This document shows positions 16,966 to 53,335 of a DNA stretch of 64,000 nucleotides, one piece after another. The stretch is from Dehalococcoidia bacterium (GTDB lineage Bacteria > Chloroflexota > Dehalococcoidia > Lucifugimonadales > UBA3495). Made by a program: the position numbers and the translations under genes. Numbering within the stretch: position 1 is the first letter of the stretch; each line of letters begins with the position of its first letter. The DNA lies in the NCBI GenBank assembly GCA_034423195.1, contig DAOUIZ010000066.1, positions 95,740-159,739 on the forward strand. The letters are read 5' to 3'. The notes beneath the pieces are model-generated. The model searched no databases. It was given only the letters and a program-made list of their open reading frames with translations, and was not told the origin of the DNA.

Positions 16966-17340
16966 TTGGAGCCGATCATCACATCAGACGAACATATTAG
17001 GACAGCCGAGTATTTCCTGCTGGAATCTGACCGGGAGTTCAACGCGGGGGAACGCCTCCAGGCATCGGAAAAGCTCTGGGGGGCGGCGGCCCACTCTGTT
17101 ATCGCGGTTGCCCAAAAGCTGGACTGGCCCGCCGCGAAGCACGGAAACCTGAAGAACGGAGTCCGTCGGCTGGCCCGCCGATCAAGGGATGACAACCTGA
17201 CCCGCGGTTTCGCGGCAGGCGAGCGGTTTCACGCCAATTTCTACCATGACTTTATGACCGCGTCGGAAATCGAAAGATACCGGCCGATAACCAGGGCCTT
17301 TGTCGCGGATATGCTGGTCCTGGCCGGGTCGGCAGCGTAA
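16966..17340 (+). CDS. PaREP1/HEPN-like four-helix protein (paralog B)
   Basis: 124-aa ORF with a TTG start and the motifs ASEKLWGAAAHSVIAVA and ERFHANFYH (an R-x6-H spacing). Confidence 0.5.
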   Translation: MEPIITSDEHIRTAEYFLLESDREFNAGERLQASEKLWGAAAHSVIAVAQKLDWPAAKHGNLKNGVRRLARRSRDDNLTRGFAAGERFHANFYHDFMTASEIERYRPITRAFVADMLVLAGSAA

Positions 17341-17370
17341 ACAAGGAAAACCCAGGAGAGGAAACCCATC

Positions 17371-18285
17371 ATGCCCAATTTGCTCAAGGACAAAGTCGCC
17401 ATCGTTACCGGCTCCGGCCGGGGAGTCGGCCGGGGAGTGGCGATGCAAATGGCCGAAGAAGGGGCCAAGGTGGTCGTTGTCGACCCGGGCGTCAACGTGG
17501 ACGGTTCCGGCTTCGACCAGTCCATCGCCCAGGTGGTCGCGTCGGAGATCAACGAGGCGGGAGGCACCGCCGCCGCCTGTACCGAGTCCGTCGCCACGAT
17601 GCAGGGCGGCGAGGCTATCGTCCAGACGGCCATCGACAACTTCGGCAAGCTGGACATCGTGGTCACCTGCGCCGGCATCCTGCGCGACCGGATGGTCTTC
17701 AACATGTCGGAGCAGGAGTGGGACGATGTGATAGCGGTCCACCTGAAGGGAACGTTCACGGTGGTCAAGCACGCGGCCATCCTGTTCCGGCAGCAGCGTT
17801 CCGGGCGCATCATCACCTTCAGCTCCACGTCCGGCCTGTACGGCAACAGTGGACAGGCCAACTACGGCGCGGCCAAGGACGGCATCGCCGGGTTCACCCG
17901 CGTCGTCGCCAGGGACATGGGCCGCTACGGCGTTACGGCCAACTCCATCGCTCCCAGCGCCCAGACCCGCATGACCGGAAGCGTCCCCCAGGAGGCCCGG
18001 GACCTCCGCTCGACGCGTGGCATTACCGCCGGTTCGGGTCTGCTGGGCGAGGCCGATGACGTGGCTCCCTTCGTGACCTGGCTGGCATCGGACGAGTCGG
18101 CCCACGTCAACGGGCAGGTCTTCCACGTGACCGCCGGACTGGTGACCCTGCTGAACCAGCCCGAGCCGGTGAAGACCATCCAGAAGGACGGCCCCTGGAG
18201 CGTCGAGGAACTCATCAGCGTTTTCCCCGCCACCATCGGGATAGAGCTCTACAATCCCGCCCCGCCCCCCCCGCCATCGGCGTAG
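17371..18285 (+). CDS. SDR family oxidoreductase (MFE-2 / Rv0148-like dehydrogenase), paralog 2
   Basis: 304-aa ORF. It differs from SDR-1 at about 22 of the first ~200 residues by my count, and the C-terminal ~100 aa diverge. Confidence 0.9.
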   Translation: MPNLLKDKVAIVTGSGRGVGRGVAMQMAEEGAKVVVVDPGVNVDGSGFDQSIAQVVASEINEAGGTAAACTESVATMQGGEAIVQTAIDNFGKLDIVVTCAGILRDRMVFNMSEQEWDDVIAVHLKGTFTVVKHAAILFRQQRSGRIITFSSTSGLYGNSGQANYGAAKDGIAGFTRVVARDMGRYGVTANSIAPSAQTRMTGSVPQEARDLRSTRGITAGSGLLGEADDVAPFVTWLASDESAHVNGQVFHVTAGLVTLLNQPEPVKTIQKDGPWSVEELISVFPATIGIELYNPAPPPPPSA

Positions 18286-18343
18286 GTGGCCGCGATATGA
18301 CCCTGCCGCTCTGCCGCATTGGCCACCGGACATCGAAAGGGCC

Positions 18344-19063
18344 ATGTCATTGAAGGTGGTCACGTGGAACGTAGAATGGGCGGGGCCTAACTCACGGCGA
18401 ACCGCTGAAATCCTGCGCCGGATTGACGATCTGTCTCCCGAGGTTGTTTGTCTAACCGAGACTCATTCCGGGCTGCTGTCCCAACGTGGACACACGGTCT
18501 GCTCGCAGCCGGATTATGGGTATGCGGTGAAGGAACACCGGCGAAAGGTCATGCTCTGGTCGAAGGAACCGTGGAGCAGTGTGGATGACGTGGGAACCGA
18601 CACAATGCCGCCAGGCCGGTTCGTGTCCGGGGTAACCCGGACGTCGGTGGGCCGTGTCGCCGTGGTGGGAGTCTGCATCCCCTGGTTCATGTCACGGGCA
18701 GAGAGGAGCCGCAGTGAGGAACGCAAGGCGCCGTGGGAGGATCATGAGCAGTACCTGTCCGGACTAGGGCAAGTTCTCAGTAGTGCGCCTGGGGAGGGCC
18801 TGATGGTGATGGGCGACTTCAACCAGGCCATAGGACCGGGCAGCAGGGCGCCTGCCCAGCTTCAGATGGCCTTGCAGCAGGCATTCCCGTCGAGAATAAA
18901 GATCGTTACGTCTGAAATTGCGTTCCAGGGACGTCGAAGCATCGACCACATCGCGCTGGGCACGGATTGGAAAGTCCGCTCGGTAGAGGCGATCAGCAAT
19001 ATCCACGAGGAGAGGAAGCTGTCGGACCATTTCGGGGTTGTCGCTGATTTGTCTCCTCCGTGA
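18344..19063 (+). CDS. endonuclease/exonuclease/phosphatase (EEP) family protein
   Basis: 239-aa ORF with VVTWNVEW, VVCLTE, GDFN, SIDHI and SDHFGV, the canonical EEP catalytic blocks. GC looks lower than in neighbouring genes. Confidence 0.8.
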   Translation: MSLKVVTWNVEWAGPNSRRTAEILRRIDDLSPEVVCLTETHSGLLSQRGHTVCSQPDYGYAVKEHRRKVMLWSKEPWSSVDDVGTDTMPPGRFVSGVTRTSVGRVAVVGVCIPWFMSRAERSRSEERKAPWEDHEQYLSGLGQVLSSAPGEGLMVMGDFNQAIGPGSRAPAQLQMALQQAFPSRIKIVTSEIAFQGRRSIDHIALGTDWKVRSVEAISNIHEERKLSDHFGVVADLSPP

Positions 19064-19181
19064 TCTCATGGGAATTGGGCCGTACCGTTGCCCCCACCCT
19101 CTAAGTAATCTTCCCAAGCCCGCCCGTCCCTCTTCCGTCCGCCGGGTTGACGATGCTCGAAACCGCCCGGCACAAAATTGG

Positions 19182-19190
19182 TGATATAAT
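19182..19190 (+). promoter_or_regulatory. candidate extended -10 promoter element (TGaTATAAT)
   Basis: TGATATAAT lies 52 nt upstream of the ATG at 19242. There is no good -35. Confidence 0.35.
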
Positions 19191-19241
19191 TGTGAACAAA
19201 TCGTTTATATCGGCAAGTTGTTCCGATTTCAGGAGGATAGC

Positions 19242-20660
19242 ATGTCCCGGTTTCGCAGTTGGTATCTGCCATTCTTGATTGTCATGACGGCCTGCGCCGT
19301 CCTCGCCGCAGCCTGCACGCCGGCAGCCGAGGTCCGCGAGGTACAGGTAACAGTCGAAGTCCCCGGTGAAACCCAGGTCCAGGAAGTCCCCGTCACCGTC
19401 GAGGTTGAAAAGGAAGTGACCAGGGACGTTCCCGTGACCGTCCAGGTCGAAGTCGAGAAAGAGGTTACCAGAGATGTCCCGGTAACCGTCCAGGTCCCCA
19501 TGGAAGCCCTCGACCCCCTCATCGTCGGCAACCTCAACGCCTTCACCGGCTCCATCGCCGAGTTCGGTCCTCCCCTCCGCAACTCCGTCGAGCTCGCCGC
19601 AGACCACGTCAACCGCGCCGGTGGAGTCGGCGGTGGCTCCATGGTCATCATCAGCCGCGACACCGGCGTCAACCCGGTCCAGGGCGTGGACGGCGCCAAG
19701 GCCCTCGTTGACGTCGAAAACGCCGCCGCCATCGTCGGCGCCCTTTCCAGCGGCGTGACCATCGCCGTTGCCCAGTCCGTCACCATCCCCCAGGAAACCC
19801 TCACCATCTCCGGAGCGTCCACCGCTCCCGGCATCACCGTGCTGGAGGACAACGACTTCCTCTTCCGCACCACCCCCTCCGACGCCGCCCAGGGTGTGGT
19901 CCTGGCCCGGGTCGCCCGCGAGCAGGGTTACGAGAACGTCGGCATCATGTACATCAACAACGCCTACGGGGAAGGTCTCGCCAACCAGTTCGAGGAGAGC
20001 TTTACCGCCCTCGGCGGACGGGTCTCTTCCAGTGTCCCCCACGAAGACGTCCAGCCCACCTACGTATCCGAGCTGGAAAAGGCCACCAGCGGCGACCCCG
20101 ATGCCCTGGCCGTCCTGAGCTACACCGGCCAGTCTGCCGTCTATGTCCGCGAGGCATTGGAAGGCGGCTACGCGGACAAGTTCCTCCTTGCCGACGGCAC
20201 CAAGGGCCCGGAATGGATCGAAGGCATCAACGCCTGGGAAGCCCTGGACGGCACCCTGGGGACGGCTCCGGGCAGCCAGGGTTCTGCGGCCAAGGACGCC
20301 TTCGAGTCGGCCTACACCGAGAGCTACGGCTTCCCGCCCTCTCACCCCTTCATGGGTGAACACTACGACGCCACCGTGCTCATCGCCCTCGCCGCCGCCA
20401 AGGCCGGCAGCACCACCGACTCCGCCGCCATCCGCGACGCCCTGCGGGACGTTGCCAACGCCCCAGGCGAGGTCGTCGGCCCGGGCCGTGATGAAGTCGC
20501 CCGCGCCCTCTCCCTCATCGCCGACGGCCAGGACATCAACTACAACGGCGCCGCCGGCGACATCGAGTTCGACGAGAACGGCGACGTCTTCGGCACCATC
20601 GAAATCTGGCAGGTCAAGGACGGCGAAATCCAGTCCACCGGCCGGTTCGAGCTTCCCTAG
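19242..20660 (+). CDS. ABC transporter substrate-binding lipoprotein (Leu/Ile/Val-binding, LivK-like) with repeat tether
   Basis: AGGAGG lies 5 nt upstream of the ATG at 19242. The signal plus lipobox is FLIVMTACAVLAAAC, followed by a V/E-rich repeat tether and then a type I periplasmic binding fold (AIVGALSSG, YINNAYGEG). Confidence 0.85.
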   Translation: MSRFRSWYLPFLIVMTACAVLAAACTPAAEVREVQVTVEVPGETQVQEVPVTVEVEKEVTRDVPVTVQVEVEKEVTRDVPVTVQVPMEALDPLIVGNLNAFTGSIAEFGPPLRNSVELAADHVNRAGGVGGGSMVIISRDTGVNPVQGVDGAKALVDVENAAAIVGALSSGVTIAVAQSVTIPQETLTISGASTAPGITVLEDNDFLFRTTPSDAAQGVVLARVAREQGYENVGIMYINNAYGEGLANQFEESFTALGGRVSSSVPHEDVQPTYVSELEKATSGDPDALAVLSYTGQSAVYVREALEGGYADKFLLADGTKGPEWIEGINAWEALDGTLGTAPGSQGSAAKDAFESAYTESYGFPPSHPFMGEHYDATVLIALAAAKAGSTTDSAAIRDALRDVANAPGEVVGPGRDEVARALSLIADGQDINYNGAAGDIEFDENGDVFGTIEIWQVKDGEIQSTGRFELP

Positions 20661-20690
20661 CCGCCCGTCGTAGCCCCCCACTCCAGGCAA

Positions 20691-20723
20691 GTGCGGCGGC
20701 CTCTGGGGCCGCCGCACTCGTTT
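20691..20723 (+). terminator. rho-independent terminator
   Basis: GTGCGGCGGCC-tctgg-GGCCGCCGCAC (11-bp stem) followed by TCGTTT. Confidence 0.75.
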
Positions 20724-20851
20724 GGAAACCATCCAAAGGCCCCATCCCCCTTCCCGCCGGAAGGGCCCACCCCCACTAAGAAACTTTCTTAAAAGTCCCT
20801 CCCACCTTGACGGCAGGGCCATAGCATCAAGTCTGACTCGGTCCTTTCGCC

Positions 20852-21107: not shown

Positions 21108-22091
21108 CTACTGGTCCGGTATCCGGGCAATCCGGCGTTCCTCCCCCAGGATCCCTCCCGGCCGCACCAGGATAACCGCCACAATCAGCACCCCGATCAT
21201 CATCAGCCGGAAACTGGGATCGGCAAATATCCCGGGCAGGAACTGCGTGCCTGACCAGATTCCCCACACGATGAAGGCCCCCAGCACCGCCCCAAAATTG
21301 TTCCCCGACCCACCCACCATCAGCATCGCCCAGATGATGAACGTCGCCAGCAGGGGATCGAAGGTCAGCGGCGCCAGGAACCGGAAATGATGCGCGAACA
21401 GCGCCCCGCCTATCCCCATGATTATCGCCCCCAGGACGAACGCCTGCAGCTTGAACCGGAACACATTCTTTCCGCTGGCTTCCGCCGCCGTCTCATCCTC
21501 CCGGATCGCCCGCAGCACCCGTCCCCACGGCGACTTCACCGCCCGCTCCAGCATGGCGAACACCACCACCAGGACCACCGCCGCCACCACCATGTACAAG
21601 AAGTCATAATACTTCGGCGACACCAGGTCTGACAGGAACGCCGGTATCCGGTACAACCCCTTCGAGCCGTTGGCCACCCACTTCTCGTTGAGGAAGAACA
21701 GCCGCACCGTCTCGGCAATGCCCAGCGTCGAGATCGCCAGGTAGTCGTCCCGCAGGCGCAAGGTGACGTAGCCGATCCCCAGGGCGACAGCCCCGCATAC
21801 CGCCGCCGCCGCCAGTATCCCCAGGATGAACCACAGGTCGAAACCCAGGTCCAGCAGCCAGACCTCTGCCATGTTCCCGCCGAAAACGAAGTCCTCGAAC
21901 AGCGCCGGGTCCGGCGGCCTGGTGGTCAGCAGCGCCGTCGTGTAGGCCCCCAGCGCAAAGAACCCGGCTATCCCTATGTTGAACAGCCCGGTGTACCCCC
22001 AGTGGACATTCAGCCCCAGGGCGAATATCGAATAAATGCAGGCGAAAACCAGGAAACCGGCCAGGTAGCTCAGGAGCCCGGTTACTTCCAT
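21108..22091 (-). CDS. livM: branched-chain amino acid ABC transporter permease
   Basis: 327-aa polytopic ORF with GLNVHWGYTGLFNIGIAGFFALGAY, a LivM-type motif. Confidence 0.85.
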   Translation of the reverse strand: MEVTGLLSYLAGFLVFACIYSIFALGLNVHWGYTGLFNIGIAGFFALGAYTTALLTTRPPDPALFEDFVFGGNMAEVWLLDLGFDLWFILGILAAAAVCGAVALGIGYVTLRLRDDYLAISTLGIAETVRLFFLNEKWVANGSKGLYRIPAFLSDLVSPKYYDFLYMVVAAVVLVVVFAMLERAVKSPWGRVLRAIREDETAAEASGKNVFRFKLQAFVLGAIIMGIGGALFAHHFRFLAPLTFDPLLATFIIWAMLMVGGSGNNFGAVLGAFIVWGIWSGTQFLPGIFADPSFRLMMIGVLIVAVILVRPGGILGEERRIARIPDQ

Positions 22092-22349
22092 CCTCTACAC
22101 TCCATCGCCCGAATTCGTCCCGTCGTTCCCTCTCTCGTTCCCCGCCGTCAATTCCACCCTCCTCGAAAAAATCCCGGGGCTGTCGCGGATGAAAAACACC
22201 CACAAATTGGTGCTATTCTCCGGTGCATATAACTTCCATTAACAACCTTTGAGTTGTGACAGGACAGCGCCCCTCCACCCCTCCGTTGCTCCGGTTAACC
22301 AGCGCCTCCCCGGCGGAGGAAACCAGGACATGGATGCCGCTTCCCGGAC

Positions 22350-23375
22350 TCAATTCCGCCCTCCTCCGAAAATGCCCCTGGGCCTCACCAGCAGGATCAG
22401 TATCATGATCCCGAACGCCACTGCCGGCTTGTAGCTCGGATTTATCCATTGGGTCGACACCTCCGCAGTCACCCCGATAACGAACGCCGCCACCAGGGCC
22501 CCGTAGGGGTTCCCCAGTCCTCCCAGCACCACCGCCGCGAACAGCGGAATCAGGAATTTCCACCCCATGATCGGCACCAGTTGGGCCTGGTAAACGGCCA
22601 AAAGTATCCCCGCGGTGGCCGACAGCGCCGCTGCCATGCCCCACGCCCACCAGATAACCCGTTCCGTCCCGATCCCGCTGACCCGCGCCAGGTCGGGATT
22701 GTCCGCCGTCGCCCGCATGGCCTTGCCCATCCTGGTCCGGGTCAATATCACGTAGACGGCCGATACCAGGATGACCGCCACCACGCCTATGAAGATGGCG
22801 TCGGGCGGAACGCGAATGTCCATCGGCAGGTGGAAAACCTTCCTCGTTTCCCTGGGAAAGTGCTGCACCTCGCTCGTCCAGATTACCTGCACCAGGCCCC
22901 GCATCGCGATGGCGACCCCCAGCGACGCCATCGACATCACCACCACGTTGACCCCCCTTGCCCTCAGCCGCCGGTAGATTGTGATGTCCAGGATGATTGC
23001 ACCGGCCGCCACCACCGCCACGGCTATGGGAAGCGCGATCAGCACCGGGTACCCGAAGGTGAACGGACCCAGCCCACTGCCCTCGATTCCCAGCGGGGCC
23101 AGCATCCCGGCCACGATGAACAGGCCCACGTAGGCCCCCATGGTCATGTAGTCCCCATGGGCCACGTTGGCGAAGTTCATCAGGCCGTAGACCAGGGTCA
23201 GCCCGATTGCTCCCAGGGCAATAATGGCCCCGATAAACACCCCGTTCACCACCAGGCTCATCTTCACGAACGGCAGGAACCCGACCCCCACCGCGACCAG
23301 GACCAGCAAGATGGTCGTATGCGCCGGCGTCCAGGCCAGCCGCACTTGCCCGAACCCTTCCTTCCAGGAGGCCAT
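22350..23375 (-). CDS. livH: branched-chain amino acid ABC transporter permease
   Basis: Polytopic ORF with GLTLVYGLMNFANVAHGDYMTMGAY, a LivH-type motif. I prefer the ATG at 23375 to the TTG at 23396. Confidence 0.85.
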   Translation of the reverse strand: MASWKEGFGQVRLAWTPAHTTILLVLVAVGVGFLPFVKMSLVVNGVFIGAIIALGAIGLTLVYGLMNFANVAHGDYMTMGAYVGLFIVAGMLAPLGIEGSGLGPFTFGYPVLIALPIAVAVVAAGAIILDITIYRRLRARGVNVVVMSMASLGVAIAMRGLVQVIWTSEVQHFPRETRKVFHLPMDIRVPPDAIFIGVVAVILVSAVYVILTRTRMGKAMRATADNPDLARVSGIGTERVIWWAWGMAAALSATAGILLAVYQAQLVPIMGWKFLIPLFAAVVLGGLGNPYGALVAAFVIGVTAEVSTQWINPSYKPAVAFGIMILILLVRPRGIFGGGRN

Positions 23376-23407
23376 CAAATTCCCGCCTCTCCCCAATGCA
23401 ATCCCCT

Positions 23408-24112
23408 CTATCCCCCCAGGTAAAGGCTTCTGATTTCCGGATCGTTCAGCAATTCCCTCCCGTTGCCTTCCAGCCGGTTTTCCCCTGCGACCAGGACGTA
23501 TCCCCTCTGCGACATTTGCAGCGCCTCCCGGGCATTTTGCTCCACCATCAGCAGCGCGACCCCTCTGCGGTTGATCTCCCGCAGCCGCTCGAAAACGTTG
23601 TCCATCATCACCGGGGAAAGCCCCGCCGACGGTTCATCCAGCATCAACAGGCTGGGATTGAGCATCAGCGCCCGGCCAATCGCCAGCATCTGCCGCTGTC
23701 CCCCGGATAGGCTGCCCGCCTTCCGCTCCGGCCGGAAGCCCAGGTCCGGGAACAGGTCCAGCATATCCGCCATCCGCCCCCGGATATCGTCCCGCCTCAC
23801 AAACGCACCCATCTCCAGGTTCTCCCGTATGCTCAGCGAAGGAAAAACATTGTTGGTCTGGGGGACGTAGCAAAGACCCCGCCGGACAATCGCCTCCGCC
23901 GGTGACCCCGAAATCGCCTCCCCCTGGAACCTCACATCCCCCTTCCACACCCCCACCAGGCCCACGATGGCCTTCATCAGCGTGGACTTCCCGCACCCGT
24001 TGGGGCCGATGATGGTGACGATTTCCCCCTCTTCCACCGCCACCGATACGCCGTGAAGCACCTCGGTCTGCCCGTATCCGGCCACCACCCCGGAGGCATC
24101 AAGAAGTGCCAC
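23408..24112 (-). CDS. livF: branched-chain amino acid ABC transporter ATP-binding protein
   Basis: 234-aa ORF with Walker A GPNGCGKST, signature LSGGQRQML and Walker B LLMLDEPS. Confidence 0.88.
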   Translation of the reverse strand: MALLDASGVVAGYGQTEVLHGVSVAVEEGEIVTIIGPNGCGKSTLMKAIVGLVGVWKGDVRFQGEAISGSPAEAIVRRGLCYVPQTNNVFPSLSIRENLEMGAFVRRDDIRGRMADMLDLFPDLGFRPERKAGSLSGGQRQMLAIGRALMLNPSLLMLDEPSAGLSPVMMDNVFERLREINRRGVALLMVEQNAREALQMSQRGYVLVAGENRLEGNGRELLNDPEIRSLYLGG

Positions 24113-24887
24113 TCGCCCGCCTCCCCAGGTACGCTTCCATCACCTGCGGGTCATGCTGGACATCCAGCGGGGTGCCTTCGGCGATTACCGAGCCGTTCGC
24201 CATGACGATTATCGGGTCGCACATGGTCATCACGAACCGCATGTCGTGTTCAATGATGACGAACGTAATCCCCCGCTCCACGCTGGCCGTCAGGATGTTC
24301 CTGGCCAGGTCCTGCAGGAGCGTCCGGTTCACCCCGGCCCCCGGCTCGTCCAGCAGCACCACCTTCGGCTTGGACATCAGGGTCCTCCCGAACTCCAGCA
24401 GCTTCTTCTGCCCCCCCGACAGGTTGCCGGCATATTCGTTCGCCAGGTGGGAGAAGCTCAACAGCTCGAGAATCTCCAGCGCCTGTCCCTCGATGCGTTT
24501 TTCCTCCCTGGCCACCCTTCCCGGCAGCAGCCATGACGCCCAGACCCGCTCCCCGGTCTGGGAACCCGGCACCAGCATCAGGTTTTCCAGCACCGTCATC
24601 CGCTGCATTTCCCGGGGAATCTGGAACGTCCGCACCAGGCCCAGCCCGAAGGTCTGCGACATGCCCATTCCGTCGATGCGCCGGCCGTCCAGGCGAATGC
24701 TTCCGCTGCTGGGAGAGAGTGCGCCCGATATCAGGTTGAACAGCGTTGTCTTCCCCGCGCCGTTGGGGCCGATGATGCCCGTAATGGTCCCCGGCATGAT
24801 TCGCACCGAACAATGGTCCACTGCGCGGAGGCCCCCGAAGTCCTTCACCAGGTCCCGGGTTTCAAGAATGGGAGATTGTGAGCTCAC
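24099..24887 (-). CDS. livG: branched-chain amino acid ABC transporter ATP-binding protein
   Basis: Walker A GPNGAGKTT, signature LSGGQKKLL and Walker B VVLLDEPGAG. I prefer the GTG at 24887, which lies 5 nt after AAGGAG. The track start at 25049 would add an unlikely 54-aa extension. Confidence 0.85.
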   Translation of the reverse strand: MSSQSPILETRDLVKDFGGLRAVDHCSVRIMPGTITGIIGPNGAGKTTLFNLISGALSPSSGSIRLDGRRIDGMGMSQTFGLGLVRTFQIPREMQRMTVLENLMLVPGSQTGERVWASWLLPGRVAREEKRIEGQALEILELLSFSHLANEYAGNLSGGQKKLLEFGRTLMSKPKVVLLDEPGAGVNRTLLQDLARNILTASVERGITFVIIEHDMRFVMTMCDPIIVMANGSVIAEGTPLDVQHDPQVMEAYLGRRASGTS

Positions 24888-25230
24888 CGGGTCTCCTTTG
24901 CGGAGCCGAACCCCGCTTGCAGGCCCCGCTTGATGTAGGAATCGGGAACGGCCCTCCCCGACCGGCTGCATCCCGCCGGCCGCAACATGGGAACTATCCA
25001 ACAGGAACCCTCCGAAGTTAACGTGAAACTGTTGCGAAGAATAACTCAACCTGATGCACCCGCTCAGGCAGAGCCCCGGCCTGGTCCGTATCGGTCCCGC
25101 GCCCCCCCATTATCCCATACAATGCGCAACCCATGATGCCCCGCCGTGCCTGGCGCATCGGAGTCGCTATGGATGGACCGACCTGCCCCGTGCAGTGAAC
25201 GTTTTGTGAATAGGTTTGGTAAACTGGTTA

Positions 25231-26427
25231 ATGCAGCAACCCCGATATGAGAGGAAACCCTTGAGGACTTTTGTCACGGCCATCTCCATCGCCCTGCTCT
25301 TGTTGTCATTTGCCGCTTGCCAGGGAAGCCCCGGCCCGGCGGGGCAACAGGGGCCTCCCGGACCGGCAGGCTCCAGTGGCCCGGCTGGCCCCGCTGGTCC
25401 GGCCGGTGTAGCCGGAGAGCAAGGGCCCCCCGGAATAGCAGGCCCCGCTGGTCCAACCGGAGGACAAGGGCCTGCGGGCCCGGCCGGGCCCGCAGGTGAA
25501 GCGGCCACTCTCGACGAGTCTGACCTGCAACAGCTTCTTCAACAGATGGAAAGCGAGCTCCAGGACAGTCTGATCGACGCCATCGCTGAGGCGAGAATAC
25601 CCGCCGATGACCCCGCCGCCGCTCAACCGCCGGTGTCCGGCCAGCCCCAGGTCTCCGCTCCCCCCAGGTGGATGCCCGAAGAGTACACAAGGCATTTCGT
25701 GCGGGAGGCAATCCGGCGCTACGACGCCGACGGACTGGACTCCACCGCCGCCTACTACAACACCCCGGAGAGCGTGGACGGCCAGTGGTACGTATTCATA
25801 GCCGACGAGAGCGGGGCCTTGGTAGCCCACGCCAACCCCGACCTGGTTGGCGTGCCCTTGGACGATGTCCTTGGCCCCAACAGCTACCCTTCCGGCGCAG
25901 CCGTGGCGGCCACGGCCGATGAGGACGGGGCATGGTTTGACTACACCTTCCTCAATCTGGACACCGGCACCGTCCAGACCAAGCATTCCTGGATGGTGGT
26001 GCACGACGGCATCATCTTCGGCTCCGGCTGGTACGAGGAGGGCCCCCGCAAGACCGACGCCCCCGCCTATACCCGGGCCTTCGTGGAACAGGCGATCAAT
26101 CTCTACAACGCCGTGGGCTTCGAGGACACCATCGCCTACTACAACTCCAGGGACAGCATCGACGGCCAGTGGTATGTATTCATCGTCGAAGCCGAAAGCG
26201 GGCTCACCGTCGCCCACTACAATCCGGCCTTTAGGGGTAGGGACCCCAGCCTGCGGGTGGATCCCACGGGGTACTTCTACGGCGGCGACCTGCTGGCCGC
26301 CCCCGGGTCAGGGAGCTGGATCGAGTACGTCATAACCAACCCGGAAACCGGCGAAAACCAGCGGAAGCACACCTTCGCCGTCCTTCACGACGGGTACATC
26401 TTCGCTTCGGGTTGGTACGAACAGTAA
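25231..26427 (+). CDS. lipoprotein with collagen-like (G-X-Y)20 stalk and two sCache_2-like domains
   Basis: Signal plus lipobox [13 protein letters not shown]. Twenty uninterrupted G-X-Y triplets span 25324..25503. Two internally repeated ~130-aa modules follow ([29 protein letters not shown]... and [30 protein letters not shown]..., each ending ...GSGWYE). Confidence 0.8.
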
Positions 26428-26548
26428 ACTCCGTCGCTCATTTGAAAGGCCCTGCTCCGCGATCCGCCGCCCTTGACATCCTCCCACGGCTATATTACGT
26501 TATTTACACCACCCCACCACCTCTCAGGTGGCGGCGCAACCGGAACGA

Positions 26549-26623
26549 GCGGAAGTGGCTCAGTGGTAGAGCATCTCCTTGCCAAGGAGAGGGTCGCGAG
26601 TTCGAATCTCGTCTTCCGCTCCA
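26549..26623 (+). tRNA. tRNA-Gly (anticodon GCC)
   Basis: GCGGAAG acceptor, GCTC-AGTGGTA-GAGC D arm, TCTCC-TTGCCAA-GGAGA anticodon arm, GCGAG-TTCGAAT-CTCGT T arm, encoded CCA. Length 75 nt. Confidence 0.93.
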
Positions 26624-26736
26624 TCTTCCCCAGTCTTCCCTTCTCAACTACCTCTTCTCACGCCTCTTTGCAGGTATATATCCCGGTGCTTGCTGCCTTG
26701 ATTAAAGGGATAGTACCCGCCTCTCCCGGACCATCT

Positions 26737-28014
26737 TTGAAGGTCCCCGCGTTCGCCTTTCTGGTGATGTTCCTGCTGGCCTGCGGGACCCCTGAGCAGC
26801 CACCGGTTATGGAAACCCGTCTGCCAACAGCGGCAGCGGAAGTTCCAACCGTAACCCCCACGCCCACCCCCGCCCCTACGGAGGCTCCGACCTCCATTCC
26901 TGCGCCAACCCCCCTGCCGTCACCGGAACCCGATCCCCTCGACGGCCGCCCGGTCAACCTCCCCGCCGACGAGGGCCGCCACCGCGACCCGGTGGAATGG
27001 TGGTACTTCAACGGCCACCTGCAGGACGAGTTTGGCAACGATTACAGCTACCACTACGTTGCCTTCGAGTTCGTCACCCCCGAGGGAATCGTCGCCCGCC
27101 TGCTTCAATACAGCTGGGCCGATCACGGGACTGGGCGCAGGAATGCCGGGGAGCAGTTCTACCTGCCCCAGGCCGGGCTGCCCCAGCCCGCGAATGCCGG
27201 ACCCACCCCCACCCCGGTCCCCCTGGACCTCGAAACCGGCGAGATTGACGTCAGGACCGGAGACTTGGTCCTGTCCGGCGATGGGCAGGAATACTCCCTG
27301 GCATTCCAGTTCCCTGTCGGCCCCTCGGTCCGGCTTTCCGCTTCGTCCGTCAAGCCGCCGCTGCTGCACCGGAAAACCGGCCTGGTCGACCTCGGCCCGG
27401 CGGGCAGGACCTGGTACTACACGCGCCCCCGCCTGGAAACCTCGGGGACCGTCACCGTCAACGGTGAATCCATGCCCGTCGCCGGGCTTTCCTGGATGGA
27501 CCACCAGTGGGGCGACGCCACCACCGCCCTGGAGGTGGGTTGGGACTGGTTCAGCCTCAACCTGGACGATGGCGCCGACCTCATGGTCTCGATAGTCTGG
27601 GAGGTGGACGGCCGGGAGCCCATCGCCACGTACGGCACCCTGGCCCTGCCTGCATCCGGCCCCGGTGAAGGCGGGAGGATCCTCCACCTTGACGTCGGGG
27701 AAATCACGTTGACTCCCACCGGCTCGTGGTCAAGCCCGGAGACCGGCGGGGTGTACCCCATGGGCTGGGACTTGTCGGTCAGGCTTGACGACAACCGGCC
27801 GGACCTCCCCTGGGCCGAAATGACGCTGGAGCTGACCCCGCGCCGGGAGGACTCCGAGTTTCCGCCCAGCCCCTTCGTGCCAATTGATTACTGGGAAGGT
27901 GCGGTCACCGCCGAAGGCCGGCAGGACGGACTGGCCGTCTCCGGGGTGGGGTTCGTGGAGATGGTGGGTTACGCGCCCCGCCGGGCCCTCTCCCTGCCCG
28001 GCCAGGCTCCCTAA
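26737..28014 (+). CDS. lipoprotein with CrtC/AttH-like lipocalin domain
   Basis: The track ORF (26473) runs through the tRNA. The in-frame TTG at 26737 gives MKVPAFAFLVMFLLAC, a lipobox signal. A PT-rich tether follows, then VEWWYFNGHL...SWMDHQWGD, typical of AttH/hydroxyneurosporene-synthase-like proteins. Confidence 0.75.
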   Translation: MKVPAFAFLVMFLLACGTPEQPPVMETRLPTAAAEVPTVTPTPTPAPTEAPTSIPAPTPLPSPEPDPLDGRPVNLPADEGRHRDPVEWWYFNGHLQDEFGNDYSYHYVAFEFVTPEGIVARLLQYSWADHGTGRRNAGEQFYLPQAGLPQPANAGPTPTPVPLDLETGEIDVRTGDLVLSGDGQEYSLAFQFPVGPSVRLSASSVKPPLLHRKTGLVDLGPAGRTWYYTRPRLETSGTVTVNGESMPVAGLSWMDHQWGDATTALEVGWDWFSLNLDDGADLMVSIVWEVDGREPIATYGTLALPASGPGEGGRILHLDVGEITLTPTGSWSSPETGGVYPMGWDLSVRLDDNRPDLPWAEMTLELTPRREDSEFPPSPFVPIDYWEGAVTAEGRQDGLAVSGVGFVEMVGYAPRRALSLPGQAP

Positions 28015-28854: not shown

Positions 28855-30243
28855 TTGGTTACTGCGAACGATATATCGACCGAAATTTCCCTGTTGGCCC
28901 ACCTGATGCGCCGGGCCGGCTTCAGCGCCCGCCGTGAAGAACTGGAACGATACCAGGCCCAGGGGTACGACGCCACCGTAGATTGGCTGCTAAACCCCGC
29001 TGAGGACGACGGCATCGACCAGGACATCGTGGAACGCTACTACATAGACATCGACGACCTGCGTAACAATGACCCCACCAACGCCTGGTGGCTGTACCGC
29101 ATGATCAACACCGCCAATCCTCTGCAGGAGAAAATGGCCCTCTTTTGGCACGGGCTCTTCGCCACGGCCTACGAGAAAATCGAGAACGGGCGGGCGGTGG
29201 CCTCCCAGATTCAGACCTTCCGGCGCCTGGGATTGGGCAACTTCCGCACCATGCTGGTCGAGCTTTCCCGGGACCCGGCCATGATTATCTGGCTGGACAA
29301 CGACACCAACCACCGGGAAGCCCTGAACGAAAACTACGGTAGAGAGCTGCTGGAGCTGTTCTCCATGGGCGTCGGCAACTACACCGAGGACGACGTCAAG
29401 GAGTGCGCCCGGGCCTTCACCGGGTGGACCATCGCCAACCGCAACGCCCGCTACCCCTGGGGACCCTTCCCGCTGGAGTTCGAGTACCGTCCCTGGGACC
29501 ACGATGACTCGGTGAAGACCTTCCTGGGGGAACAGGGACGCTTCAACGGGGAGGACATCATTGACATTATCGTCAAGCAGCCGGCCACCGGGCGGTTCAT
29601 CGCCGAGAAGCTCTACAATTTCTTCGTGTCCGACGAACCGGCCCCCGCCGATGCCATCGAGGCCCTGAGCGCCGCCTATTTCGAGTCCAACTACAACATG
29701 CAGTCCGTCATGGACGTGCTGCTCCGCTCCGGGTTCTTCAAGGACTCGGCCTATGCCAAGGTCAAGAGCCCGGCCGAAGTCGTCGCCGCCATCCTGCGGC
29801 TGGTGGGCGATTTCCAGGAACCGCGCCCCGGACTGCTGGAAACGACCTTCGAGTCCAAGTACATGGGACAGGAGCTGCTCAACCCCCCCACCGTCGAGGG
29901 ATGGCACACCGGCCGGGAGTGGATTGACAGCGGTTCGCTGGTCAGCCGGGTCAACTTCGCCTCCGACCAGGTCGGGGACCTGAACCACGTTGGCGTGCAG
30001 GATATCGTGGACCGCCTGGCTCGGAGGGACGGCACCGTAACGCCGGAGCAACTGGTCGACGGCTGCCTCGATCTCATCGGCCCGCTGCCCGTGGAGGAAA
30101 AGACCCACACATCCCTGGTGGGCAAGGCCATGAACGGCGGTCCGCTGTCCCTGGAGACCGAAGCGGACCGGGAGGAGTTCGCCCGCCGGGTTGCCGAAAT
30201 GCTCCAGCTGATAGTTGCCACCCGGGAGTTCCAGTTCTGCTGA
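28855..30243 (+). CDS. DUF1800 domain-containing protein
   Basis: 462-aa ORF with MALFWHGLFAT and WLDNDTN blocks characteristic of DUF1800. The usual DUF1501 partner is not adjacent. Confidence 0.7.
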   Translation: MVTANDISTEISLLAHLMRRAGFSARREELERYQAQGYDATVDWLLNPAEDDGIDQDIVERYYIDIDDLRNNDPTNAWWLYRMINTANPLQEKMALFWHGLFATAYEKIENGRAVASQIQTFRRLGLGNFRTMLVELSRDPAMIIWLDNDTNHREALNENYGRELLELFSMGVGNYTEDDVKECARAFTGWTIANRNARYPWGPFPLEFEYRPWDHDDSVKTFLGEQGRFNGEDIIDIIVKQPATGRFIAEKLYNFFVSDEPAPADAIEALSAAYFESNYNMQSVMDVLLRSGFFKDSAYAKVKSPAEVVAAILRLVGDFQEPRPGLLETTFESKYMGQELLNPPTVEGWHTGREWIDSGSLVSRVNFASDQVGDLNHVGVQDIVDRLARRDGTVTPEQLVDGCLDLIGPLPVEEKTHTSLVGKAMNGGPLSLETEADREEFARRVAEMLQLIVATREFQFC

Positions 30244-30943: not shown

Positions 30944-31915
30944 ATGACCACAATCGCAGCCGGGACCCGCACCTATGAGTATGACCACACCATCGGGATG
31001 GACGACTTCGCCGGTCGCGCCTTCCGCAACCTTTCCGACCTGGCCCTGGGACCGGAGGAAGTCCTGTACGTGCTGCAGCGGGGGGAACCCCTGCACCACA
31101 ACGTTTCAGTGAAGATCTGCACCGTTGGCGAGGAATGGATCGGCGACTTCGGCCGTTACGGCACTGCCCCGGGACAGATGGTCTGGCCCGCCGGCATCGC
31201 CACTGACTCCCGGCAGCGGCTGTTCGTCTCCGACGAGTGGAACCAGCGCATTTCCGTCTTCGACACCGAGGGCAGCCTGCTGGGCGAGTGGGGTGAGGCC
31301 GGTAGCGGCCCCGGCCAGTTGAAGCGCCCCTGCGGTGTGGCGGTGGACACGGAAGGAAACCTGCTGGTGGTGGACTCGGGCAACCACCGGATTCAGAGAT
31401 TCACGCCGGAAGGCCAGCTATTGGACGGGTTTGGTGAGCACGGCCAGTCACCCGGGCAGTTCAACCTGCCCTGGGGAGTGGCCGTCAACGATGCCGGCGA
31501 CATCTTCGTTACCGACTGGCGCAACGACCGTATTCAGAAGTTCACTGGCTCCGGCGATTTCGTCCTGGAGTGGGGCGAGGCGGGGAGCGGGCCGGGGCAG
31601 TTTAACCGTCCCGCCGGAATCGCGGTGGACCGGGACGGGGACGTTTACGTAGCCGACTGGCACAACGACCGGGTGCAGGTCTTCGACGCTCAGGGTGAAT
31701 ACATCACCCACTTCATCGGCGATGCCACCATGTCCACCTGGGGGGCCCAGCTGATGCTGGCCAACCCGGTCATGGAGGGCCACCGCCAGACCGCCAAGTA
31801 CCCCGAGCGGGAGGGGCGACTGTACCGCCCCCGCTCCGTCAAGGTGGACGGCGAGAACCGCATCTTCATCGTTGACTCCAACAAGGGACGCCTGCAGGTC
31901 TACCGCAAGCTCTAG
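30944..31915 (+). CDS. NHL repeat-containing beta-propeller protein
   Basis: 323-aa ORF with six repeats of the GxGPGQFxxPxGVAVDxxGxxxVxDxxNxRIQxF type. Confidence 0.85.
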   Translation: MTTIAAGTRTYEYDHTIGMDDFAGRAFRNLSDLALGPEEVLYVLQRGEPLHHNVSVKICTVGEEWIGDFGRYGTAPGQMVWPAGIATDSRQRLFVSDEWNQRISVFDTEGSLLGEWGEAGSGPGQLKRPCGVAVDTEGNLLVVDSGNHRIQRFTPEGQLLDGFGEHGQSPGQFNLPWGVAVNDAGDIFVTDWRNDRIQKFTGSGDFVLEWGEAGSGPGQFNRPAGIAVDRDGDVYVADWHNDRVQVFDAQGEYITHFIGDATMSTWGAQLMLANPVMEGHRQTAKYPEREGRLYRPRSVKVDGENRIFIVDSNKGRLQVYRKL

Positions 31916-52618: not shown

Positions 52619-53335
52619 TCAGTGTTCGGCGGATTCGGACTCGATGGCGTTGAAGGTGACGCGGGACAGGGTGGTCTGGGTGTCGTTGCGCCACTGGTGG
52701 AAGACGTTGGGCGGAACCAGAACGGCGTCACCGGCCCTGACGTTGTGGCTGGTCCCTTCAATGACGATGGAGGCCTCACCCTCGAGCACGTAGACGACGT
52801 GGTCCCAGGGGTGGGAGTGGCCGCCCTCGGCGGCGTGGCTGACGTGGCCGGGGCCGATCGGGTCGTTGTGGAGCATGACGTAGTTGGGCACTCCATCCTT
52901 GCTGCCGAGGAGGACGTGACCGACGGAGCGGTCGAGGTCAGCGTGGTTGTTGATTACCGGGGGCTCGCCGGTTCCCTCGCCGCCGTCGTTCTGGGCGCCG
53001 CCGCTCTGGGCCGCGATCAGGGGATTGACCTCAATCCGGTCGATGTCTCCCTCGCCGCCGTTGTTCAGGGTGTAATGGTCCACGTTGCCGGGGATGTACA
53101 TGGCGTCGCCGGCCTTGACCGGATACTCCTTGCCGTCGCAGATGAGGGTGCCGGAACCCTTGATGATGTAGACCTCGTGCTCCCACTCGTGGATGTGGTG
53201 GGAACTGGTGCCTCCGGGTGGAATGCGGGAGAAGGTGAGGGTACAGGTGGGCGGGTTGTCGTCGAGGCTGATCAACCGGGCGGGCGACCCGTCGGCGGGC
53301 ATCGCGTCGGCTACGTTTCTGATAACCGGGTCCAT
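52619..53335 (-). CDS. bicupin protein, paralog 3
   Basis: ATG at 53335 (MDPVIRNVADA), with the same two-cupin architecture. The track start at 53545 adds a non-homologous extension. Confidence 0.85.
   Translation of the reverse strand: MDPVIRNVADAMPADGSPARLISLDDNPPTCTLTFSRIPPGGTSSHHIHEWEHEVYIIKGSGTLICDGKEYPVKAGDAMYIPGNVDHYTLNNGGEGDIDRIEVNPLIAAQSGGAQNDGGEGTGEPPVINNHADLDRSVGHVLLGSKDGVPNYVMLHNDPIGPGHVSHAAEGGHSHPWDHVVYVLEGEASIVIEGTSHNVRAGDAVLVPPNVFHQWRNDTQTTLSRVTFNAIESESAEH

Follow-up and report, generated by a model that had tools for sequence, protein, structure and literature searches.

A predicted surface lipoprotein of a Dehalococcoidia bacterium that joins a collagen-like tract to two Cache modules and has no output domain

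Introduction

Among the extracellular sensor modules of prokaryotes, Cache domains are the most common, and they are understood almost wholly as inputs of kinases and chemoreceptors. Known sCache_2 sensors carry a single such domain between two transmembrane helices and drive cytoplasmic signalling as dimers. Collagen-like surface proteins, such as Scl1 and Scl2 of Streptococcus, BclA of Bacillus, Lcl of Legionella and Bucl of Burkholderia, have a globular head on a surface-anchored, unbroken stalk of Gly-X-Y (G-X-Y) triplets whose repeat number varies. Here we describe a gene that draws on both kinds of protein, found at 25231..26427 (+) in a 64-kb stretch of contig DAOUIZ010000066.1 from a Dehalococcoidia bacterium (this whole stretch is called the window, and all window coordinates refer to it). 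Its product is very probably a lipoprotein with Cache heads, and it may well be a stalked, multivalent, output-less surface binder of carboxylate-bearing compounds on a sponge-associated SAR202-type bacterium.

The gene had been singled out in an earlier reading of the window from its letters and translations (the sequence-only reading), which knew of no description of such an architecture. Our literature searches likewise returned no description of a protein combining collagen and Cache, of collagen-like proteins in SAR202 or Chloroflexi, or of stand-alone Cache lipoproteins. The collagen stalk and the Cache domain are each of a kind already known, but their combination does not occur in the literature that was searched. 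The lineage itself, SAR202/Dehalococcoidia, is an abundant uncultured marine group credited with the turnover of recalcitrant carbon and with sponge symbiosis.

Results

Plan and start of the protein

The open reading frame (ORF) is real and encodes, in order, a signal peptide with lipobox, one Gln, 20 G-X-Y triplets, an acidic helix, a Pro-rich linker and two modules, with the stop codon (26425-26427) directly after module 2. Translation confirmed the opening as it was first read, with a lipobox, one residue and then 20 uninterrupted triplets (25324..25503). The absence of an output domain, also claimed at the outset, holds as well, since the protein ends right after module 2. There is no C-terminal extension, and the signal peptide is the sole hydrophobic segment.

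The start codon placed at 25231 in the sequence-only reading is probably not the true one. Besides ATG 25231, the in-frame starts upstream include TTG 25216, and the true start is more likely TTG 25261, which would give a protein beginning MRTFVTAIS... We favour this codon because a Shine-Dalgarno-like GAGAGG, read from the sequence at 25249..25254 (+), sits 6 nt upstream of it, because nearly all homologues open with MRxF or MKTF and have the lipobox Cys at residue 20, and because the gene call of the homologue P0120 (81-88% identical) begins at the equivalent codon. Residue numbers below are counted from TTG 25261. No exact database record was found for the window protein taken from ATG 25231, and a scan for a consensus promoter and terminator detected none. 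An antisense ORF at 25306..26217 (-) was discarded as the usual artefact of high-GC DNA.

From this start the predicted lipoprotein signal peptide spans 25261..25320 (+), with the lipobox at residues 16-20 and the Cys predicted to be lipidated (C20) at 25318-25320 (+). The combination of signal peptide and lipobox that marks bacterial lipoproteins (Lgt/LspA substrates) is present in the sequence, and C20 is invariant in the family alignment, where homologues have lipoboxes such as SMSAC, SIAAC, SLAAC and LMAAC. Cleavage of the signal peptide and lipidation of C20 would thus be expected from the motif.

Two sCache_2 modules with a conserved pocket

Two modules of 126 aa each occupy 25669..26046 (+) and 26047..26427 (+; module 2 itself runs to 26424, followed by the stop). 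The sequence-only reading had recognised them as sCache_2-like, and this was borne out by Pfam, by a profile search and by fold. Pfam sCache_2 (PF17200) matched in two stretches with 37.9 bits against a cut-off of 25, and a profile built from 24 modules (A3) returned TlpB (5.6e-7), PscD (2.2e-6) and Adeh_3718 (4e-5) in a profile-to-PDB sequence search. An AlphaFold2 (AF2) monomer prediction from a 50-sequence family alignment (A1) had a mean predicted local distance difference test (pLDDT) score of 83, with both modules above 90, and in this model both modules show a PAS-like fold, with N-terminal helices of their own and then five strands apiece. The best single-domain matches found by Foldseek were 4exo/2qhk, 3ub6-9 (TlpB), 5g4y (PscD) and 4k08 (Adeh_3718), with template modelling (TM) scores of 0.54-0.65 and root-mean-square deviations (rmsd) of 3.3-3.9 Å over ~130 residues. 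Pfam, the profile, and the AF2 model with Foldseek thus agree on sCache_2 for the modules. No transmembrane segment or output domain follows module 2, and the coupling through which sCache_2 domains usually signal is missing.

We also considered whether the pair could be a dCache domain (PF02743/PF08269), in which one long N-terminal helix is common to the two modules. The top Foldseek matches by E-value were in fact dCache structures aligned across both modules, but the superpositions were poor (TM-scores of 0.16-0.23 when query-normalised to ~0.31 when target-normalised, rmsd 10-16 Å), and dCache_2 scored 26.4 bits against a cut-off of 26.5. The dCache identity was rejected on both grounds.

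In PscD the carboxylate of propionate is hydrogen-bonded by Tyr90, His103, Tyr143 and Lys156 and the ligand is stacked between Trp92 and Trp145, with Tyr90, His103 and Lys156 conserved among sCache_2 domains (PMC5062169). By profile alignment this tetrad corresponds to Y187 (25789-25791), H200 (25828-25830), Y238 (25942-25944) and K251 (25981-25983) in module 1, and to Y315 (26173-26175), H329 (26215-26217), Y366 (26326-26328) and K379 (26365-26367) in module 2, all on the + strand and all with codons verified. The equivalent of Trp92 is F189 in module 1, the predicted stacking residue, and F317 in module 2. The four pocket positions were 94-100% conserved over 434 modules from 121 family proteins. 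Because the tetrad aligns with that of PscD and stays conserved, we predict that each module probably binds a carboxylate-bearing ligand.

The two modules had been described as two copies of one unit. Both are indeed sCache_2, but they are not equivalent, being ~47% identical and falling into two conserved subtypes by column statistics. Module 1 belongs to an 'internal' subtype A, with the loop AHANPxLVG...GPNxYPxGAAVAA, and module 2 to a 'C-terminal' subtype B, which carries ...GRWVxYV and in the window protein has an Arg-rich loop with GYFYGGD. What sets the subtypes apart are the loops and helices that lie between strands 2 and 3 and that in PscD shape the remainder of the pocket. Since the window pair is most similar to the last two modules of longer homologues, the general plan can be written as [A]n-B, with n = 1 in the window.

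The collagen-like tract

The tract of 20 unbroken G-X-Y triplets (25324..25503, +) begins after a single Gln past the lipobox Cys, contains 15 Pro and just 2 charged residues, and matches Pfam Collagen (PF01391) with 33.6 bits against a cut-off of 27.2. Across the six reading frames of the window, just one other run reaches 6 triplets, a Gly-rich stretch of exactly that length at 52628..52681, and chance is thus no explanation for the tract. Tandem Repeats Finder reported a 27-bp, 83%-matching 9-bp repeat and nothing more in the 180 bp of tract DNA, and the triplets are encoded by mixed codons. The tract DNA is therefore no simple repeat, and the periodicity is kept at the protein level.

The same regularity was observed in relatives. 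Three close relatives sharing the window neighbourhood (the syntenic orthologues L001-L003) have 20, 18 and 16 triplets with zero interruptions, so that they differ by whole triplets. Of the 102 homologues in which an N-terminal lipobox motif was seen, 90 carry a G-X-Y tract after the Cys (at least 5 triplets within 8 residues of it), with lengths of 6-30 triplets and a median of ~9.5, and in 80 of the 90 the tract starts exactly one residue past the Cys (C-Q-G). Position X is Pro in 54% of their triplets, and position Y is Ala in 39%, Pro in 20% and Gln in 18%. In 1.76 Mb of related loci together with the window, tracts of at least 6 triplets were confined to this family.

Taken across the family, the periodicity, the lengths and the codon pattern point to selection on Gly at every third residue. 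Such a constraint is the signature of triple-helix packing, and it argues for a likeness to genuine bacterial collagen-like proteins rather than for drift. The sequence-only reading had named a variable or absent tract in orthologues as the mark of low-complexity drift; the length does vary and a minority lack the tract, but the periodicity is strictly kept. We consider it probable, on this pattern, that the tract forms a collagen-type triple helix. The pLDDT of the tract and of the linker lay around 50, which is no surprise when a single chain is modelled. Given the established rise of 0.286 nm per residue, a triple helix of 60 residues would be ~17 nm long. The conserved one-residue gap to the lipid anchor suggests a role for the anchors in setting the register of the chains, synthetic lipidated collagen peptides being the analogy.

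In three homologues that have no collagen tract (P0066, P0072 and P0075), the spacer that separates lipobox and first module consists instead of 4-5 tandem units (G.S..DVE.IVRDSIADIP.P.P) of ~27 residues each.

Acidic helix and linker

The sequence-only reading also described an acidic helical segment followed by a Pro-rich linker, and both were found in the sequence and the AF2 model. The amphipathic helix spans 26 residues (86-111; 25516..25593, +), with 10-residue blocks averaging pLDDT ~70-82, and a function as neck or nucleation helix is possible. The linker that follows (25594..25668, +) is predicted to be flexible, residues 114-126 having a pLDDT below 50. We recognised no convincing trimerisation domain in the protein.

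An additional helical segment of 64-70 residues (RAEDSERLDNAIHGIID...VVLSSVMN) was observed in close orthologues between 'SLIDA' and 'AIAEARI'. It lies near 10300-10500 in L002 and L003 and at residues 96-165 in P0120, corresponding to 25560-25580 in the window, and it is found in many members with short collagen tracts but in neither the window protein nor L001.

Family, hosts and variation

A search for the same architecture elsewhere had been suggested together with the first description, and it uncovered a large family. The genomic search, with one genome per species, gave 271 stretches encoding relatives, and 80 of these 271 loci were retrieved. All 80 are records of uncultured genomes (metagenome-assembled genomes, MAGs), 79 of them titled Dehalococcoidia, SAR202, Chloroflexota or Chloroflexi and one Actinomycetes, and several assemblies hold two family copies. 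Bins 22 and 127 are among these loci, bin127 occurring in a binning study of the sponge Aplysina aerophoba, and the isolate names of other loci look sponge-derived. The NCBI label for one homologue is 'cache domain-containing protein' and nothing more specific. A search with the N-terminal 96 residues as query, aimed at different heads on a lipobox-collagen leader of this kind, returned just generic short collagen-repeat proteins and truncated fragments of the family.

The protein search gave 2,497 homologues (E<=1e-3). In the 120 of these that were listed we found 2-6 tandem modules, most commonly 4, and the family plan runs from a lipobox over a spacer to 1-5 internal modules, with a single module of a distinct type at the C-terminus. 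Internal modules were at least 90% identical within one protein in 49 of 115 proteins, and one 90%-identity cluster (P0061) spans proteins of 301-870 residues; together these suggest that module number changes quickly. Repeat collapse during assembly is an alternative explanation for this variation in module number.

An exhaustive search of 50%-identity representatives extended the family to 1,146 at E<=1e-3, of which 214 reached E<=1e-30. Architecture was counted in 148 representatives of this wider family, in which module number ranges from 1 to 16, the longest array being that of P0141 with 16 sCache_2 modules in 2,099 aa. Other tandem arrays with no output domain were observed in P0189 and P0146. 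Just 8 of the 148 have a G-X-Y tract, and the members with collagen thus make up one branch within a wider surface family of output-less tandem sCache_2 proteins.

Some relatives are fused to further domains, all of them extracellular binding or processing ones; some of the very long proteins could be gene-call fusions. In P0223 and P0241 four modules precede SBP_bac_3, P0280 brings together SBP_bac_5, three modules and two Peripla_BP_6, and the remaining fusions, among them those of P0176, P0256 and P0144, involve PPC, Laminin_G_3 with Ig, 5'-nucleotidase C, S8 peptidase with RCC1 and PPC, and DUF285. A signalling output domain was found in 0 of the 17 multi-domain relatives examined.

Genomic neighbourhood

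Upstream of the gene and divergent from it lie two Liv-type ATP-binding cassette (ABC) ATPases (24099-25049 and 23408-24112, both -) and two Liv-type permeases (22350-23396 and 21108-22091, both -), followed by a Peripla_BP_6 binding protein (19218-20660, +) that is the canonical binder of the Liv system, and by a short-chain dehydrogenase (17371-18285, +), which is a real gene. Two Gly/Asp/Val-rich ORFs at 19101-20822 (-) and 17182-18363 (-) were dismissed as antisense artefacts, having no Pfam match and an antisense-like composition. We rejected the idea that the window protein serves as binder for the Liv-type ABC transporter next to it (21108-25049, -), which has its own Peripla_BP_6 protein and is linked to the family in three relatives only.

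Between the Gly-rich lipoprotein gene and the next lipoprotein gene, immediately downstream of the former, is a tRNA-Gly(GCC) at 26549-26623 (+). The next gene encodes a double-lipocalin lipoprotein of the CrtC/AttH type (about 26700-28014, +) with the lipobox FLLACG and a Pro/Thr-rich tether of ~60 residues; its start is placed further downstream than the ORF at 26473-28014 would have it because that ORF overlaps the tRNA. A DUF1800 protein (28855-30243, +) and an NHL-repeat beta-propeller (30944-31915, +) follow in the window. The same DUF1800 and NHL pair is also seen no more than 10 kb from family members in L019, L043 and L063, which are non-syntenic loci.

Compared with the counterparts in L001-L003, the window protein is 80-87% identical (67-92% in the tract and linker), while housekeeping neighbours are mostly 91-98% identical; faster change than in the neighbours is typical of exposed proteins. 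The CrtC-type lipoprotein is kept downstream in L001-L003 and also in L081 and evolves fast, with 72-79% identity against the same range for housekeeping neighbours. De novo clustering of ORFs found no conserved neighbour gene in the 80 loci, the best cluster occurring in 11 of 80, and no kinase, chemoreceptor or cyclase was present among the 25 commonest Pfam families of 148 immediate neighbours, which are a heterogeneous set.

Discussion

A proposed stalked surface binder and the points against it

In the model we favour, export through Sec and lipidation of Cys20 would hold the protein in the outer face of the cytoplasmic membrane. The 60-residue tract would join those of two other copies in a ~17-nm triple helix of collagen type, with register set by the co-planar lipid anchors and perhaps also by the short acidic helix. 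Above it, the flexible Pro-rich linker would bear the rigidly joined sCache_2 pair, and the Tyr/His/Tyr/Lys tetrad of each domain would bind a carboxylate group. As the ligand-contacting loops differ, the two domains probably recognise different carboxylate compounds, and as there is no transmembrane or cytoplasmic output, binding would not be transduced as a signal. With up to 6 sites per trimer, organic acids could be captured or retained at the surface for uptake; the same arrangement might instead hold the cell to a carboxylate-rich polymer. SAR202 sponge symbionts have no peptidoglycan-synthesis genes and have been proposed to produce carboxylic acids from alicyclic compounds (PMC6306507), and given the former a lipoprotein of this kind would be directly surface-exposed.

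A role in capture for uptake is a tentative proposal, which we put below the binding itself. Its most elaborate form would be a nutrient-capture device in which the protein behaves as a lipidated collagen peptide, the anchors nucleate the triple helix, and 6-18 or more Cache pockets trap acids for transporters; we think this quite unlikely to hold in full. This same reading would have the pockets trap carboxyl-rich dissolved organic matter or organic acids of a host, with Cache domains acting as uptake-side binders and not as sensors.

Several observations weigh against a trimeric carboxylate binder. The pocket mapping derives from alignment to a profile hidden Markov model, and characterised sCache_2 sensors act as dimers, not trimers. 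Many family members hold just 6-8 triplets, a small number for a triple helix that is to form autonomously, and a minority replace the tract with helix-PxP repeats or Pro-rich spacers, so that length rather than trimerisation may be the essential property. Heptad periodicity is weak in the helix that follows the tract, where hydrophobic residues fill 4 of 11 a/d positions, and this helix is variable in homologues and absent in some members. Finally, no recipient transporter can be named, because the Liv system has its own binder and synteny is limited to just three close relatives.

Alternative explanations

The tract could be a monomeric, extended spacer, one of several interchangeable low-complexity tethers, with no trimer formed. 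This would account for the other spacers (helix-PxP, Pro-rich) that fill the same position in some members, for the spread of tract lengths (6-30 triplets around a median of ~9.5), for the large indels in the adjoining helical region even between close orthologues, and for the lack of a convincing trimerisation domain; the neighbouring CrtC-type lipoprotein, too, has a Pro/Thr-rich tether past its lipobox. We nevertheless consider it rather unlikely, since a monomeric spacer needs no Gly at every third residue, and the periodicity is unbroken in the window, in the three orthologues and in most homologues, with close orthologues differing by whole triplets (20, 18 and 16). The mixed codons, the preference for Pro at X (54%) and for Ala, Pro or Gln at Y, which fits the pattern of bacterial collagen-like proteins, and the confinement of such tracts to this family in 1.76 Mb of related DNA also speak for more than a tether.

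The remaining alternatives concern what the Cache heads do. Cache domains are overwhelmingly sensory, and solute-binding proteins and the lipoprotein LpqB act as accessory sensors for their kinases, so the protein might be a co-sensor that docks onto a membrane sensor kinase or chemoreceptor encoded elsewhere. Stimulation of receptors by solute-binding proteins is known (PMC8050422), and a partner could be encoded away from the locus despite the lack of a conserved neighbour. Such a co-sensor is distinctly improbable, however, given that kinases, chemoreceptors and cyclases are missing from the 25 commonest families of the 148 neighbours, that no neighbour is conserved across the 80 loci, and that signalling output occurs in 0 of 17 multi-domain relatives; arrays of up to 16 modules, several paralogues per genome and rapid change of copy number fit bulk binding better. 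It is very improbable that the protein is chiefly a host-interaction adhesin or mimic whose collagen-like surface binds to, or blends into, the sponge matrix, with the Cache domains secondary. Scl1/2, Lcl and Bucl are adhesins, the related loci include sponge MAGs, and some relatives have Laminin_G and Ig domains. The conserved part of the family is nevertheless the Cache array with its pocket, while the tract is lost in some members and present in just 8 of 148 representatives of the wider family; the tract also adjoins the membrane beneath the heads, a poor place for host contact, and the NCBIfam Scl and Lcl models score far under their cut-offs. A stalked surface binder of carboxylates is the reading we retain.

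Significance

The family shows Cache domains working without an output, in arrays of 1-16 on surface lipoproteins. If these arrays bind carboxylates, they would point to the compounds that these bacteria harvest. The short, hydroxyproline-free G-X-Y tract next to a lipid anchor would offer a parallel in nature to synthetic lipidated collagen peptides, and is of interest for protein engineering.

Comparison with known systems

The surface-anchored stalk with a globular head is shared with the bacterial collagen-like proteins introduced above. In the window protein, however, the anchor would be an N-terminal lipid one residue before the tract, whereas the known proteins use an LPXTG, exosporium or outer-membrane anchor, and the head is a Cache array of the type that binds small molecules instead of a V, C1q-like or adhesin domain. 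Membership of the Scl1/Scl2 and Lcl adhesin families was not supported: the NCBIfam models NF038330, NF038329 and NF046116 scored 38.5, 38.3 and 27.6 bits, far below their cut-offs of 400, 325 and 500, and the matches cover the G-X-Y stretch only. A functional analogy can be drawn with the collectins and other defence collagens (MBL, SP-A/D, C1q, ficolins), which have the same order of stalk, helical neck and C-terminal heads, and like them the window protein would be multivalent. There is no homology to them outside the G-X-Y tract; the heads are Cache and not C-type lectin domains, the protein is bacterial and would be lipid-tethered, and its neck has a weak coiled-coil pattern.

A second functional analogy is with the lipoprotein solute-binding proteins of single-membrane bacteria, which are lipid-anchored binders of small molecules on a flexible tether. 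The window protein differs from these in having PAS-like Cache modules and not a two-lobe fold, with no match to solute-binding Pfam families, and in having no cognate transporter conserved nearby. The dCache sensors (PctA, Mlp24, DctB, McpH) likewise place two PAS-like modules in one extracytoplasmic polypeptide, but here each module has its own N-terminal helices and the number of modules in the family runs from 1 to 16. The closest relationship is with the sCache_2 sensors, namely PscD (5G4Y/5G4Z), Adeh_3718 (4K08), the Vibrio parahaemolyticus protein (2QHK/4EXO) and TlpB of Helicobacter pylori (3UB6), which share the Pfam family, the fold, the extracytoplasmic site and the tetrad. In place of their single, membrane-flanked domain, the window protein has two head-to-tail modules (1-16 in its relatives) on a predicted lipoprotein with no membrane-spanning part.

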